64,000 bases of DNA from Candidatus Methylomirabilales bacterium (lineage in GTDB: Bacteria; Methylomirabilota; Methylomirabilia; Methylomirabilales; CSP1-5), in NCBI GenBank assembly GCA_046758505.1, contig JBHIAH010000006.1:1544-65543 (forward strand), given 5' to 3'. Positions 58,869 to 62,485 of the stretch are shown here, piece by piece (position 1 is the first letter of the stretch; every line of letters starts with the position of its first letter). The position numbers and the translations under genes were made by a program. Below the pieces are notes generated by a model, which made no database searches, was not told the DNA's origin, and saw only the letters and a program-made list of their open reading frames with translations.

Positions 58869-59591
58869 CTATTTCGCCCTGCCGGGATTAAGACCTTTAT
58901 CGCGGGCCTGCCAGAGCAATAAGTGCTCCTTCCGGAGGAGGGAAATGTAATTGCGATCCCCCGTAAGGACGTATGCAGCGGTTAACCTCTGGACATCCTC
59001 GATCCATTCTTGGACATTTGGATGGCCGGATGCGGTTTCGAGAAGTTTCTCGAATGCATCCCTCCCAGAGGAAATGATCGTAGCCTGCTGCTCTGGACGA
59101 TACCATTGAAAGACCGTGAAGCCCGCACGAGTAAAGACAGCCGGAACGTCAAGCTGGATCCCTTGATTTTTCAGGTTGACAGACAACCCGCTGAGACAGG
59201 CTGCCATCAAACATGCGGCACACGATGCTGTCTCGGTCGTGGCACCGCTGGGGTGAGGCCTGTGTTCTGTTCCGGCCCCCTCAAGCGTGGTTGAGAGGAT
59301 CTCGCTCAGGACAATAACCGCTGCCTCAGCGAGGTCATCGGAAGGCTCTAGGTTCGAACTCTCCTGGATCTCGTTCGCAGCAGCAATTAACGCCTGGTCG
59401 AAAGGCTCGGCAGGGTCCGGCACCTTGGCCTTACTGGTATTCATTTCAGGCACGATGCAAGCCCCTTCAAAGCTAGCCTGGAGGAGCAACCCCACATACC
59501 TCTTATCATAACCTTCGTTCCCTGTCAGCAGTCCTGCAGGCCAGGCCTGCTCCCCTTTCATCTTAGACTGCCGATAAAGGAGGGGATACAC
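58869..59591 (-). CDS. hypothetical protein whose start abuts (1 nt after) the stop of the HgcAB-like gene
   Basis: 240 aa. The GTG at 59591 directly abuts the upstream TGA (59592-59594). No motif recognised; an alternative ATG is at 59561. Confidence 0.5.
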   Translation of the reverse strand: MYPLLYRQSKMKGEQAWPAGLLTGNEGYDKRYVGLLLQASFEGACIVPEMNTSKAKVPDPAEPFDQALIAAANEIQESSNLEPSDDLAEAAVIVLSEILSTTLEGAGTEHRPHPSGATTETASCAACLMAACLSGLSVNLKNQGIQLDVPAVFTRAGFTVFQWYRPEQQATIISSGRDAFEKLLETASGHPNVQEWIEDVQRLTAAYVLTGDRNYISLLRKEHLLLWQARDKGLNPGRAK

Positions 59592-60734
59592 TCACCGTGC
59601 CAGCCGCTTGCCCAGGAGATTCAGCTTGAACTTCCTTACTGTATCAGGCATCAGCAAGTCTCCCCTCGGACTCTCGAAGTAAAGCGCGTCGAAGGGACAT
59701 TGCACGATGCATGCTCCACACTGTACGCACTTCGCCGCCCTCGGCAGGGTCGCCACATGCCGAACCTGTTCCACCTCGAAGACGGCCGTAGGGCACACCT
59801 GCTCACACAACCCGGCTCCCTTGCACCGGTCCGAGTCCAGACGGATCCGAAGCAGTCGGTCTTCGTGGAGGCTACTTTTATAAACGGGGGTGCTCCCCAT
59901 CAGGTCGAGACTCACAATCAGGACCACCACGATTGAGCTAAGGCCCCAACGGAACATCAAGTCCCAGGAAAAATCACCGGCCAGGCCCGCATAGCCAGCG
60001 AGACCAAGCATGAAGAGCAGCCACAGGAGCAGCGAAACGCCTCGCTGGCCGAAGTCGAAGAACACGAAGCCGACATGCTTCCCCCCGGTACGGAGGCGTC
60101 CTTCGTAAAGGGGAAAGCTTAGGAACATGAGAAGAGACAGTCCCCAGACCAGACCGACAAGCGGGAGCACTCCGTCCCTCCACACTGGAAAGACGACGAG
60201 CGCACCAACGAGGGAAATGGGAAATGCCCAGGCGACGGCCATTTCCATCCGCTGCGGCCACAGGAAGCTCACCCTGCACATTTCTGCGGTCTTCTCGCGT
60301 CCGCCGCTGAGAAAGGCGGGAATTGCGGCTGCGTACACCGGTCCCCACACGACTCTCCAACCGGTCTTCCCGTGAATGATCTTTCCCTCGATACCCGTTG
60401 CAGCGAGTTGCGGCAGGATTACCTGCCGGTGGTCCACGAGGTCTTCGATACCACTCGTCTTCAGGACTGAGACGACGTTGTGATTGGTCAAATGCCCCCC
60501 CGTCGCGCCACACCATACGTTGACTCCGCGGCTGTTCGCAACCAGCAGGTATGCATCCATCCCTTCGAGGGCGCGCTTGACGCGTTCCACTGTGAGGTGG
60601 AAGTTACCGGTTAGAAGGACTGGTGAATTGCGGCCGGGGTTTCCGATCTTGACGAGACCCATCTTACACGGAAACGGAAGCACCCGCAGCAGAGTTTGGA
60701 GGACATTGACCCAGACGAAAGTAAAATGCTTCAC
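59592..60734 (-). CDS. HgcAB-like fusion protein: CFeSP/HgcA-type corrinoid-binding domain, 4-5 TM helices, and a C-terminal HgcB-like ferredoxin
   Basis: 380 aa. GLVKIGNPGRNSPVLLTGNFHLT..LLVANSRGVNVWCGATGG..ILPQLAATG..VVWGPVYAAAIPAFL parallels D. desulfuricans ND132 HgcA as I recall it (PGLYA.G.P...SPVLVTANYKLSF, and my recollection of the ND132 cap helix is roughly LDT.GINVWCAAGKG). Then hydrophobic helices at residues ~165-290, then RCKGAGLCEQVCP..CVQCGACIVQCP. Confidence 0.8.
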   Translation of the reverse strand: MKHFTFVWVNVLQTLLRVLPFPCKMGLVKIGNPGRNSPVLLTGNFHLTVERVKRALEGMDAYLLVANSRGVNVWCGATGGHLTNHNVVSVLKTSGIEDLVDHRQVILPQLAATGIEGKIIHGKTGWRVVWGPVYAAAIPAFLSGGREKTAEMCRVSFLWPQRMEMAVAWAFPISLVGALVVFPVWRDGVLPLVGLVWGLSLLMFLSFPLYEGRLRTGGKHVGFVFFDFGQRGVSLLLWLLFMLGLAGYAGLAGDFSWDLMFRWGLSSIVVVLIVSLDLMGSTPVYKSSLHEDRLLRIRLDSDRCKGAGLCEQVCPTAVFEVEQVRHVATLPRAAKCVQCGACIVQCPFDALYFESPRGDLLMPDTVRKFKLNLLGKRLAR

Positions 60735-61459
60735 GGTACCACTCCAGCGGGCTTTTGGGCCACGAGCTCGATGAAGCTTTGCAGCGCACCCGACTTGACC
60801 GATAGGATCGTCAGACCCGCCTCGGTCAATCGCTTCGGCAACTCCGCGATGGGATGCGTCGTTTGCTGGGTGATGAGGTAAGCAAGGACCACGAGAGGTG
60901 TTCTGGCCAACGACTGAACCACCCGGGCGGCAAGGGTTCGAGGTTTGACCTCATCTGCGACGAGCAGAAGGCCTCCGGGCCGCAGGATCCGCCCTACCTG
61001 CCTGAGGGTGTAGGCACGCTCATCCTCGCTCAACTCGGAGAAGCAAAGGCCACTCATCACTGCGTCGTACTTCTCTGCCTTCTCACCGTCCAGCTCGGCG
61101 ACGCCCATCTCTACGAAGGTGACGCTTTCCGCAAGACCTGCTTCCCGCGCGCGCTGCGCAGCGATCTCGAGCATCCGAGCGTTGATGTCGATCGCTTTCA
61201 CCTTCCCCCCACGTCGTGCGGCCCGAAGCGCCAGGGCGCCAGTGCCGCAGCCGAGATCCATCACTTGCTGCCCGTCCTCGACGTGGCTCGCAAGGCGATC
61301 GTAGGCCCTATCCAAACATCCGAGCGTGAGGAGGCGGATACCGAGATCGTATCGACTCGGAGCGGATTCCAGGATCCGCATCAGGACATACGTGCTCATG
61401 GTAGCATCCACGCTGGTGGTTTGCTCCCAAGCGCGCGTCGCATCTTCCTTGCTGGGCAC
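60731..61459 (-). CDS. class-I SAM-dependent methyltransferase, translationally coupled (GTGA) to the HgcAB-like gene
   Basis: 242 aa, GTG start. VMDLGCGTGALAL (motif I), KVKAIDIN and ILRPGGLLLV. I recall a methyltransferase family annotated as corrinoid-protein-associated next to such fusions, but cannot verify membership here. Confidence 0.78.
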   Translation of the reverse strand: MPSKEDATRAWEQTTSVDATMSTYVLMRILESAPSRYDLGIRLLTLGCLDRAYDRLASHVEDGQQVMDLGCGTGALALRAARRGGKVKAIDINARMLEIAAQRAREAGLAESVTFVEMGVAELDGEKAEKYDAVMSGLCFSELSEDERAYTLRQVGRILRPGGLLLVADEVKPRTLAARVVQSLARTPLVVLAYLITQQTTHPIAELPKRLTEAGLTILSVKSGALQSFIELVAQKPAGVVP

Positions 61460-61495
61460 CCCGAGGGGTTCAACAGGTCACAACTAGGGACTGGC

Positions 61496-61545
61496 GCCGC
61501 TCGGTCGGATAGCCGAGGGGGTCGAACAAGGTTTCAGCGGCCCGC
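61496..61545 (-). repeat. family B palindromic repeat, copy B1 (between metF and the methyltransferase)
   Basis: Plus strand gccgctcggtcggatagccgagggggtcgaacaaggtttcagcggcccgc. Related to 62609-62656 and 63856-63903. Confidence 0.55.
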
Positions 61546-61615
61546 AGGAGCAACTCTATATGCCCCGCTTTACGAGCACGGACGCAAGTTCCCATTGATG
61601 GTGGTAACGAGCCGG

Positions 61616-62485
61616 TCATCTTACCGCTTTTAAGATGTCGGCTGTGGGATGCACTTTGTTGAGGCAGTAGAAATGAATCCCGGGAGCACCGCCGTCCAAA
61701 AGTTGTTGGCACTGGCGGATGGCAAATTCGATCCCTGCTTTGAGGGTCGCATCCCGATCATCCTGTAACGGTGCAAAAATTCGTTTCACTTCGTCGGTGA
61801 CGGTCGCGCCGCATAACAAACAGAATCGCTGTAAGGCCGCATAATCTGTGATTGGCAGAATGCCCGGAATCACCCGCACGTGAACGCCAATTCTGCGCAG
61901 CCGCTCGACGTATTCAAAATAATCCTTGTTATCAAAAAATAGCTGCGTGATGACGAAATCCGCTCCCGCGTCGATTTTCAACTTGAGAAACTCTGCATCC
62001 TTGTCCCTATCCGGACACAAAATATGTCCTTCGGGGAATCCCGCCACCGCAATGCCAAAATACTCCGCGTACTTCGCACGGATAAACGCGGCCAGTTCAC
62101 TACTGTACTTGAAATTGTCATCCGTGGGTTGCCAGTCAGGTTGACCTTGGGGGGGATCACCGCGCAGGGCCAAAATATTTCGTATCCCCCGAGATTTAAT
62201 GTCCTCCACGATTGCCGCGATATCATATTTTGTATTGAGAACACAGGTGAGATGCGCCATGCCAATGACATGATGGTGGGCTTCGATATGCTGGACGATA
62301 TCAAAGGTTTTTTCCCGATTTCCTCCACCGGCCCCATACGTACACGAGATGTAATCGGGCTGCAGTTCGCAGAGCTGGGCGATGGTGTTCAGTAAATTCT
62401 CATACCCTTTGTCCGTCTTCGGCGGAAACAGTTCAAACGAAAACGTTCGCTTTTGATGGGCAAAGAGATCTTTTATTCGTTCCAT
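61616..62485 (-). CDS. metF: 5,10-methylenetetrahydrofolate reductase
   Basis: ATG 62485 (MERIKDLFA..). The track begins two codons earlier at a TTG. FSFELFPPKT, TYGAGG, HLTC, NILALRGDPP and FPEGH are MetF hallmarks. Confidence 0.9.
   Translation of the reverse strand: MERIKDLFAHQKRTFSFELFPPKTDKGYENLLNTIAQLCELQPDYISCTYGAGGGNREKTFDIVQHIEAHHHVIGMAHLTCVLNTKYDIAAIVEDIKSRGIRNILALRGDPPQGQPDWQPTDDNFKYSSELAAFIRAKYAEYFGIAVAGFPEGHILCPDRDKDAEFLKLKIDAGADFVITQLFFDNKDYFEYVERLRRIGVHVRVIPGILPITDYAALQRFCLLCGATVTDEVKRIFAPLQDDRDATLKAGIEFAIRQCQQLLDGGAPGIHFYCLNKVHPTADILKAVR

Follow-up and report, generated by a model that had tools for sequence, protein, structure and literature searches.

A cpaM and hgcAB-like gene pair from a Candidatus Methylomirabilales bacterium: a conserved two-gene unit with a proposed role in corrinoid-dependent methyl transfer

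The DNA analysed here (the window) is a stretch of 64,000 nucleotides (nt) from a Candidatus Methylomirabilales bacterium (GenBank assembly GCA_046758505.1, contig JBHIAH010000006.1, positions 1,544 to 65,543). Four co-oriented open reading frames (ORFs) lie on its minus strand at 58869-62491, and they encode a methylenetetrahydrofolate reductase (MetF), a class I S-adenosylmethionine (SAM) dependent methyltransferase, a fusion protein of 380 amino acids (aa) with corrinoid-binding, membrane and ferredoxin domains, and a protein of 240 aa when read as the longest ORF. In an earlier note, made from the sequence alone, the four genes were taken for a candidate uncharacterised membrane methyl-transfer system. 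Our analysis points to a functional unit of two genes, cpaM and the gene of the HgcAB-like fusion protein, in which metF and the last gene, here called orf194, have no specific part. Taken jointly, the protein identities, the two-gene unit and the role of metF and orf194 as bystanders are in our view close to certain.

The four minus-strand ORFs, the codon of Cys75 in the cap helix NVWCGATGG of the fusion protein (60510-60512) and the GTGA at 60731-60734, in which the GTG start of the fusion gene shares 4 nt with the stop codon of cpaM, were read as the earlier note had given them. The tight packing that it reported at 59591/59592 did not hold. By the longest-ORF rule the last ORF starts at the GTG straight after the TGA of the fusion gene, and this abutment is, judging from the homologues, an artefact of the rule, since 19 homologues have lengths of 175-211 aa and align from residue 47 onward. 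The start of orf194 is probably the GTG at 59453, which has GAAGGGG before it, and the gap behind the fusion stop is therefore 138 nt; NCBI's own call is a 230-aa product. The longest cpaM ORF (242 aa) extends up to a GTG at 61459, and its most likely start is Met21, the ATG at 61399, which gives 222 aa, a length shared with the NCBI record and with the median of the family. With this start the gap between metF and cpaM is 216 nt rather than 156 nt. No promoter or terminator was detected in a scan between the four genes, and a search for riboswitches and other RNA elements around the cluster yielded none, the sole match being a chance small nucleolar RNA (snoRNA; E = 0.59). The features are collected in Table 1.

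Table 1 Features of the cluster and its neighbours in the window, with GC content at third codon positions (GC3)
Feature	Position	Strand	GC3	Basis and remarks
cpaM, class I SAM methyltransferase	60731..61399	-	0.72	222 aa; NF043040 match, name on identical NCBI protein
hgcAB-like fusion gene	59592..60734	-	0.70	380 aa; NF043039 match, identical NCBI record; GTG start
Corrinoid-binding domain, CFeSP large-subunit C-terminal-domain type	60285..60677	-		Residues ~20-150; PF03599, PDB match, Foldseek
Membrane domain, four transmembrane helices	59889..60260	-		Residues ~159-282; hydropathy, loop charge, AlphaFold
Ferredoxin domain	59670..59849	-		Residues ~296-355; Fer4 families
metF, methylenetetrahydrofolate reductase	61616..62491	-	0.55	291 aa; PF02219, TIGR00676; neighbour outside the conserved module
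orf194 ('240-aa protein' of the earlier note)	58869..59453	-	0.61	Lineage-restricted hypothetical protein outside the conserved module
DUF6134 gene			0.57	
CAAX protease gene			0.64	

The fusion protein matched the NCBIfam model HgcAB_like (NF043039) over its full length, residues 9-352 aligning with model positions 2-350 of 350 (456 bits, cutoff 285, E = 1.1e-136), and the NCBI record 'HgcAB-like fusion protein [Ca. Methylomirabilales bacterium]' is 100 % identical to it. The models of related proteins all remained below their cutoffs: the HgcA model NF040863 scored 145.5 bits (cutoff 275), with model positions 30-173 of 325 and thus the corrinoid domain only, the HgcB model NF040864 scored 50.4 bits (cutoff 99), and the CdhE/AcsC model PRK04165 scored 89.9 bits (cutoff 306) over only positions 321-445 of 450, its C-terminal corrinoid domain. 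By these profile scores the protein is a member of the HgcAB-like family, and neither a bona fide HgcA or HgcB nor an ordinary corrinoid iron-sulfur protein (CFeSP). The earlier note had named membership among ordinary CFeSP/AcsC proteins as one way in which its proposal could fail, and an assembly error joining two genes as another. The latter was ruled out as the source of the fusion, as the one-chain architecture is conserved across hundreds of independent contigs; 80 genome loci and more than 2,400 proteins in the databases have it. The first description of fused HgcAB proteins is that of Podar et al. 2015 (PMC4646819), and they have been treated as a sister clade of HgcA (bioRxiv 10.1101/2022.11.21.517362).

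The methyltransferase scored 284.3 bits with the NCBIfam model NF043040 ('corrinoid protein-associated methyltransferase CpaM', cutoff 180), and an NCBI protein of 222 aa named CpaM is 100 % identical to it. Its SAM motif I is intact (VMDLGCGTGAL). Its earlier assignment to the class I SAM methyltransferases was correct, and so was that of MetF (PF02219, 4.5e-91; TIGR00676, 305 bits, cutoff 293.7).

The pairing of the two genes was examined from both sides. Among 80 genome loci encoding relatives of the fusion protein (56-81 % identity), which include Binatia, Gemmatimonadota, Gammaproteobacteria, Myxococcota, Desulfobacterota, Chloroflexota, Acidobacteriota and the FCB group as well as the archaeal carriers Bathyarchaeia, Thermococcaceae and Methanococcoides, cpaM was found directly upstream of the fusion gene on the same strand in 75, across many bacterial and archaeal phyla. 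The remaining five comprise two loci with a gap of 500-700 nt, one fragment, one contig edge and one true absence (L042), where an unrelated hydrolase lies upstream of the fusion gene. Reciprocally, a scan seeded with the CpaM alignment gave 80 metagenome loci, 73 of them with room downstream, and the fusion gene followed cpaM in 72 of the 73 (71 directly, one past a 556-bp gap). In the metagenome locus without it (L158) the CpaM-like gene has lost conserved motifs, and both L158 and L042 look like decay or rare loss. At the junction a 4-nt overlap was found in 42 of 75 loci and is also the median. The pairwise distances of the two proteins are correlated (r = 0.76, Mantel p <= 0.001). The system occurs in bacteria and archaea of very different kinds, among them lineages that are not considered strict anaerobes.

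No other family was conserved to a comparable extent: clustering of the neighbours within 5 kb gave no family present in more than six of the 80 loci. A small membrane methyltransferase of the PEMT/ICMT type lies within 1-2 kb upstream of the pair in six loci (e.g. L050:537-857 and L058:3529-4254), and a regulator of the TetR family does so in another six; both associations are weak and clade-limited. Genes of a Wood-Ljungdahl context, i.e. the CFeSP small subunit, the pterin-binding methyltransferase (MeTr) and carbon monoxide dehydrogenase/acetyl-CoA synthase (CODH/ACS), were not among the recurring neighbours in the 80 loci.

The two proteins also occur as a single chain. A search of 1.84 billion cluster representatives (50 % identity) gave 168 relatives at E <= 1e-30, and 13 of the best 150 representatives are proteins of 536-644 aa with an N-terminal CpaM domain in the same chain. 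Twelve of these score 210-283 bits with the CpaM model, and P0389 lies just below its cutoff with 177 bits. Behind the CpaM domain there is a linker of 20-80 aa, after which eight of the 13 run into a complete corrinoid-transmembrane-ferredoxin protein and five (P0323, P0334, P0377, P0389 and P0392) into an HgcA-like protein without the ferredoxin tail. These 13 natural fusions are classical Rosetta-stone evidence for direct cooperation between CpaM and the corrinoid domain. P0392, with 220 bits on the true-HgcA model (cutoff 275) over nearly its full length, is possibly an intermediate between HgcA and the fused family. A distinct subfamily (P0329, P0357, P0383 and P0318), scoring above the HgcAB-like cutoff, has an N-terminal multi-helix membrane extension of 145-190 aa, the cap helix N(V/I)WCSSL and two complete four-Cys ferredoxin motifs; two of its members have a Cys-rich C-terminal tail (e.g. 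..GKCSCAYCK..) and are more HgcB-like than the clade of the window.

Of the conserved partners that the earlier note had in mind, the methyltransferase was thus confirmed, and metF and the 240-aa protein were not. Neither metF nor the 240-aa ORF was found within 4-7 kb of the pair (tblastn, E <= 1e-5) in any of the 80 genome loci or the 80 metagenome loci, the closest cassette relative, L002 (81 % identity), included. The CAAX protease and DUF6134 genes were likewise beside the pair in none of the 80 genome loci. orf194 is a genuine gene, but of narrow distribution: it has about 20 homologues, mostly of ~194 aa, with the invariant motifs FQWY and D.PAV.TR, and gave no match to Pfam or NCBIfam. 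Its orthologues in related contigs (66-73 % identity; L081-086) occur where cpaM and the fusion gene are absent. In L081-083 the orthologue precedes, by 30 nt, a metF sharing 85 % identity with that of the window, and in the alternative setting it has a DUF6134 gene (69 % identity) on one side and a convergent cupin gene (88 % identity) on the other. The same anchor genes, DUF6134, metF, orf194 and cupin, surround the cassette in the window, and orf194 may be a lineage-specific protein associated with metF.

The base composition differs as well (Table 1). The region 57900-63650 of the window is a low-GC patch, with metF, the DUF6134 gene and the CAAX protease gene at a GC content of 0.50-0.53, the cassette at 0.59-0.62 and the window at 0.605; the outliers relative to the window average are thus the flanks, not the cassette. 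The simplest reading is that a two-gene cassette sits in a variable spot of a lineage-specific DUF6134-metF-orf194-cupin synteny. We call metF and orf194 bystanders because they are absent from the 160 loci, because their orthologues occur without the cassette and because their GC3 differs. What looked like a tie to folate metabolism arises by chance from the order of the genes at this site. The other ORFs of the window that were scanned (~41.6-63.6 kb and two at 37-39 kb) encode unrelated housekeeping functions, with no Wood-Ljungdahl or cobalamin genes among them. Downstream of the cluster (47923-54076, minus strand) lie the genes of the large subunit of a glutamate synthase (1550 aa) and of a small subunit resembling GltD, and beyond them DinB/MST-like, esterase and Gly-zipper genes.

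The description of the fusion protein as a corrinoid domain, a membrane domain and a ferredoxin domain in one chain was supported by the matches to Pfam CdhD (PF03599, residues 20-141, 2.7e-16) and to the Fer4 families of Pfam (residues 297-352). The corrinoid domain shares 27-32 % identity with the C-terminal domains of CFeSP large subunits, and Foldseek superposed it on CFeSP chains with a root mean square deviation of 2-3 A over 129-135 columns. In the sequence match to the CFeSP gamma subunit in PDB (2h9a, 2.7e-12), Cys75 is aligned with the Leu in 'GTSVLTAWAAGK'. Cys75 is invariant in all 22 aligned proteins and N[VI]WC is present in 80 of 80 loci, in none of which the cap helix has the ..GK ending. 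The AlphaFold model of the fusion protein, built from a shallow alignment of 22 sequences, has a predicted local distance difference test (pLDDT) of 60 and was used for the corrinoid domain and the helix count only. Block means in the corrinoid domain are mostly 73-92, with values below 50 at the cap helix (residues 74-80). The best PDB match of the whole-chain model in Foldseek was the published HgcAB model 9a0b (E = 6e-11).

In the membrane domain the four to five helices estimated earlier came down to four, both by hydropathy (163-183, 188-208, 232-252 and 262-282) and in the AlphaFold model (159-181, 186-211, 233-252 and 257-280). Hydropathy and loop charge place the positively charged loops on the side of the N- and C-terminal domains. 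With four helices and positive-inside loops, the corrinoid and ferredoxin domains are therefore both placed on the cytoplasmic side, together with the soluble CpaM. An even helix count is a requirement of a C-terminal cytoplasmic ferredoxin, whereas HgcA has five helices. According to the 22-protein alignment the domain has the invariant motifs EMAVAWAFP and DLxGSTP, and there is no invariant Cys or His in it.

The ferredoxin domain has a complete CxxCxxCxxxCP as motif 2, with four Cys (C336-x2-C-x2-C-x3-C346-P, 59694-59729), and motif 1 has three (C304-x2-A-x2-C310-x3-C314-P, 59790-59825). In 79 of 80 loci the second position of motif 1 is not Cys but one of Ala, Val, Thr, Ile and Pro. A three-Cys motif of this kind is the classical [3Fe-4S] signature, as in fumarate reductase FrdB and 7Fe ferredoxins. 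In more distant members of the family, e.g. P0302 and P0329, motif 1 has all four Cys, and the three-Cys state is therefore a trait of the clade and not of the whole family. The earlier label of an HgcB-type two-cluster ferredoxin thus fits motif 2, but not motif 1 or the HgcB model score, which is below the cutoff; similarly, the built-in electron input is there in the form of the ferredoxin domain, but a three-Cys cluster need not be of low potential. The window protein has no Cys beyond motif 2, which is also the case for 69 of 75 homologues, and the only invariant Cys in the 22-protein alignment are Cys75 and the seven cluster ligands.

SAM motif I and the acidic residue of beta-2 are invariant in CpaM, the residues without variation including D68, G70, G72, G74, D91 and E117. 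In the motif sGLCfSEL, Cys139 of the 242-aa ORF (Cys119 of the 222-aa protein) is a Cys in 96 % of 75 sequences, and it is located directly behind motif IV, the usual substrate-contact site of class I methyltransferases. The AlphaFold model (pLDDT 78) has a Coq5/UbiE-like fold, and a fold search gave only generic class I methyltransferases, with Coq5, RebM and MitM as top matches. Two segments, the N-terminal helices and the helix 156-181, combine a conserved sequence with a low-confidence prediction in the monomer model. Docking elements would be expected to behave in this way, and the two segments are candidate docking surfaces. Quinone methylation was considered as a general function, given the resemblance to UbiE/Coq5, and rejected, as the cassette occurs in Methanococcoides, Thermococcaceae and Dehalococcoidia, which are not known to rely on ubiquinone or menaquinone. 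In a metagenome-assembled genome of Methanococcoides sp. (L019:4928-5620, JAIORD010000042) the cpaM ORF is a chimera: over the first ~72 residues an N-terminal fragment of a UvrD/REP helicase (PF00580, 1.5e-13; Walker A GPGAGKT) stands in place of the CpaM N-terminus with SAM motif I, and the remainder is a normal CpaM overlapping the start of the fusion gene.

The overall best explanation, in which the identity of the proteins, the two-gene unit, the bystander status of the neighbours and a mechanism are combined, has in our estimate a probability of about 0.6. The mechanism by itself, with the methyl group passing from SAM via CpaM to cobalt and on to an acceptor, stands at roughly even odds. 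It is proposed because of the analogy to HgcAB and because of the obligate, sometimes covalent partnership with CpaM. For purified HgcAB, Zheng et al. 2024 (PMC11588087) found SAM and not methyltetrahydrofolate (methyl-THF) to be the methyl donor; in the reaction a methyl-Co(III) with a Cys ligand was formed, and electrons were relayed through the clusters of HgcB. In the proposed system cpaM and the fusion gene would travel jointly as a horizontally mobile cassette. The C-terminal ferredoxin domain would take electrons from a generic cytoplasmic donor and reduce the corrinoid cobalt to Co(I), onto which CpaM, having bound SAM, would move the methyl group, giving methyl-Co(III), in which the thiolate of Cys75 in the cap helix would be the lower axial ligand. 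The methyl-corrinoid, kept by the four-helix domain at its cytoplasmic face, would then hand the methyl group, as the equivalent of a carbanion or of a radical, to an electrophilic acceptor other than mercury. Mercury is an unlikely acceptor because the fusion protein lacks the HgcB thiols and has a different cap helix and because the tests on cultures were negative. We infer by analogy that CpaM methylates cobalt rather than a small molecule, and the same holds for the direction of the methyl flow and for the nature of the acceptor.

Several points weigh against this proposal. The sole experimental record for the family consists of negative mercury-methylation tests. HgcAB takes the methyl group of SAM without a separate methyltransferase (PMC11588087), and cobalt methylation catalysed by CpaM is therefore not chemically required. 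CpaM has a generic small-molecule fold, and as far as the model goes it could methylate the final acceptor or another metabolite. The model of the fusion protein is of low confidence, the ferredoxin domain and the packing between domains being unreliable in it. The three-Cys cluster may, from its motif, be a higher-potential [3Fe-4S] centre and a poor reductant for Co(II)/Co(I). Conserved thiols or His that could hold a soft metal are absent from the membrane domain, which weakens the case for a metal(loid) acceptor, while thiol-complex substrates are still possible.

One alternative, the reading of the earlier note, is a four-gene membrane methyl-transfer system, with MetF giving methyl-THF beside SAM and the 240-aa protein as a further subunit. 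The genes are co-oriented and close, the scan detected no terminator or promoter between them, and CFeSP relatives classically draw their methyl group from methyl-THF. Nevertheless, we consider this system very improbable, given that metF and the 240-aa ORF are missing from all 160 loci including L002, that orf194 orthologues occur beside metF, or between DUF6134 and cupin, in contigs without the cassette, and that the real gaps of 216 and 138 nt leave no tight packing. The cluster also has no pterin-binding methyltransferase to move the THF methyl group, and the use of SAM by HgcAB (PMC11588087) weakens the earlier idea that the neighbourhood supplies both classical donors. A different division of labour would make CpaM the terminal methylator of a small molecule and the fusion protein an accessory (anchor, channel, redox partner or sensor), with no methyl-cobalt intermediate. 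The nearest structural relatives of CpaM are indeed small-molecule C-, O- and N-methyltransferases, and its near-invariant Cys lies behind motif IV at the usual substrate site, but the strictly conserved cap-helix Cys, the corrinoid binding and the electron-input domain would be left without a role and the natural fusions join CpaM directly to the corrinoid domain, so that we regard this arrangement as improbable.

It is equally improbable that CpaM and the fusion protein form a genuine mercury methylator and that the culture negatives are false owing to uptake, expression or a defective cpaM. The statement in the earlier note that fused homologues did not methylate mercury was correct: methylmercury was not above controls in the fused-gene carriers Pyrococcus furiosus (PMC4646819) and Methanococcoides methylutens (PMC5893877). 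Podar et al. (PMC4646819) cautioned that the missing methylmercury in P. furiosus is no proof that the fused protein cannot catalyse the reaction, the cap-helix Cys and the overall architecture are common to HgcAB, and the cpaM of the Methanococcoides locus L019 has the helicase fragment in place of SAM motif I; if the same lesion is present in M. methylutens, its negative test says little about the system. Against this, the fusion protein falls short of the HgcA model (145.5 bits vs 275, corrinoid domain only) and of the HgcB model (50.4 vs 99), the ..GK cap-helix ending of confirmed methylators is found in 0 of 80 loci, and C73, C94 and C95 of HgcB have no counterpart, with 69 of 75 proteins having no Cys past motif 2. 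Two cultured carriers were negative, and the cassette is common in Binatia, Gemmatimonadota and Methylomirabilales, which are not known as methylators. Slightly less remote, though still unlikely, is a reductive Co(I) chemistry such as the dehalogenation of halomethanes or other membrane-permeant electrophiles, in which CpaM would only rescue oxidised Co(II) by reductive methylation, like SAM in methionine synthase. The built-in ferredoxin suits a catalytic electron supply, the membrane location suits hydrophobic volatile substrates and the lack of conserved acceptor-binding thiols suits a non-metal substrate. In a 2026 preprint heterologously expressed HgcAB is reported to dechlorinate CCl4, but this concerns true HgcAB and is silent on fused forms. 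In addition, an obligate, translationally coupled and often fused methyltransferase exceeds the need of occasional repair, and the Cys-on cap helix is linked with methyl-Co(III) chemistry.

In the window itself the two genes are annotated correctly, as members of families that are known. NCBIfam has curated the family as well as the pairing, and the annotation of the window genes follows it. The earlier wording of an uncharacterised system does not hold in the sense of an unrecognised one, as both proteins have curated NCBIfam models and the name CpaM encodes the association. In the literature we found no paper describing CpaM or a methyltransferase partner of fused HgcAB, and the Haft selenoprotein preprint mentions neither; we likewise found no paper describing the obligate pairing and the single-chain CpaM-HgcA(B)-like fusions. 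More tentatively, and with odds somewhat short of even, CpaM and the HgcAB-like protein could form a self-contained mobile enzyme of a biochemically undescribed kind, with a Rossmann-fold loader, a Cys-ligated membrane corrinoid and a non-mercury acceptor such as another metal(loid) or an electrophile close to the membrane. Environmental surveys of the potential for mercury methylation routinely come upon fused HgcAB genes and then set them aside, and the function of these genes has been in question since 2015. The two-way tie to CpaM, the covalent CpaM fusions and the 2024 result on SAM with HgcAB now make a defined experiment on the fused family possible, and our results suggest that the earlier negative tests of the fusion should be re-read with CpaM in mind.

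Compared with the NF043039 and NF043040 families, the window pair has the same architecture, the same order of cpaM followed by the fusion gene and the same cap-helix Cys, and nothing essential differs. Within NF043039 the clade of the window has a three-Cys motif 1 and the distant P0302 and P0329 have four Cys. With HgcA/HgcB the fusion protein has in common a Cys-bearing corrinoid cap helix, a membrane domain and a dicluster-type ferredoxin, and SAM is likely to be the ultimate methyl donor in both. HgcA and HgcB are, however, two chains and the fusion is one, HgcA has five transmembrane helices (PMC11588087) as against four, and the cap helix N(V/I)WC(A/S)(A/G/S)GK of HgcA (PMC10087281) is replaced by NVWC(A/G/S)(A/S)(T/A)G in the fusion family and NVWCGATGG in the window. 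HgcB has two CxxCxxCxxxCP motifs with four Cys each, whereas motif 1 of the fusion is CxxAxxCxxxCP, and Cys73 and the C-terminal Cys94/Cys95 of HgcB, which are required for methylation (PMC11588087), have no equivalents in the fusion. An N-terminal Cys-selenocysteine (Cys-Sec) extension is impossible in the fusion. Finally, HgcA/HgcB needs no separate methyltransferase, whereas the fusion has an obligate SAM methyltransferase in CpaM.

The CFeSP (AcsC/CdhE) with its MeTr has a homologous corrinoid domain and a methyl-Co(III)/Co(I) cycle, which for the fusion is a proposed one. The CFeSP large subunit has N-terminal [4Fe-4S] and TIM-barrel parts, and the fusion shares the C-terminal domain only; nor does it have the small subunit, the pterin-binding MeTr or the CODH/ACS context of CFeSP. 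The cap-helix residue of CFeSP is non-ligating, whereas the fusion has a Cys there and is membrane-embedded. With the class B radical SAM methylases, including TsrM, the likeness lies in the route from SAM via Co(I) and methyl-Co(III) to the substrate, which is proposed for the window pair, and in a three-Cys Fe-S cluster. Their CxxxCxxC motif and TIM barrel are absent from the window pair, their B12-binding domain is of the Rossmann type whereas the corrinoid domain of the fusion is of the CFeSP type, and the three-Cys motif of the fusion is a ferredoxin [3Fe-4S] signature and not a SAM-binding cluster motif.

Three-component corrinoid methyltransferase systems consist of MT1, a corrinoid protein, MT2 and an Fe-S activator such as RamA, and in the SAM-dependent reactivation of methionine synthase (MetH) SAM is the methyl donor to cobalt. 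The three-component systems follow the same logic as is proposed here, with a loader acting on Co(I), an unloading site and an Fe-S module that restores Co(I). The loader in those systems is a TIM-barrel MT1 or the activation domain of MetH, whereas the loader proposed here is a class I SAM enzyme with a Rossmann fold. Here, too, the activator and the corrinoid protein are one chain, and the membrane domain would be the site of unloading.

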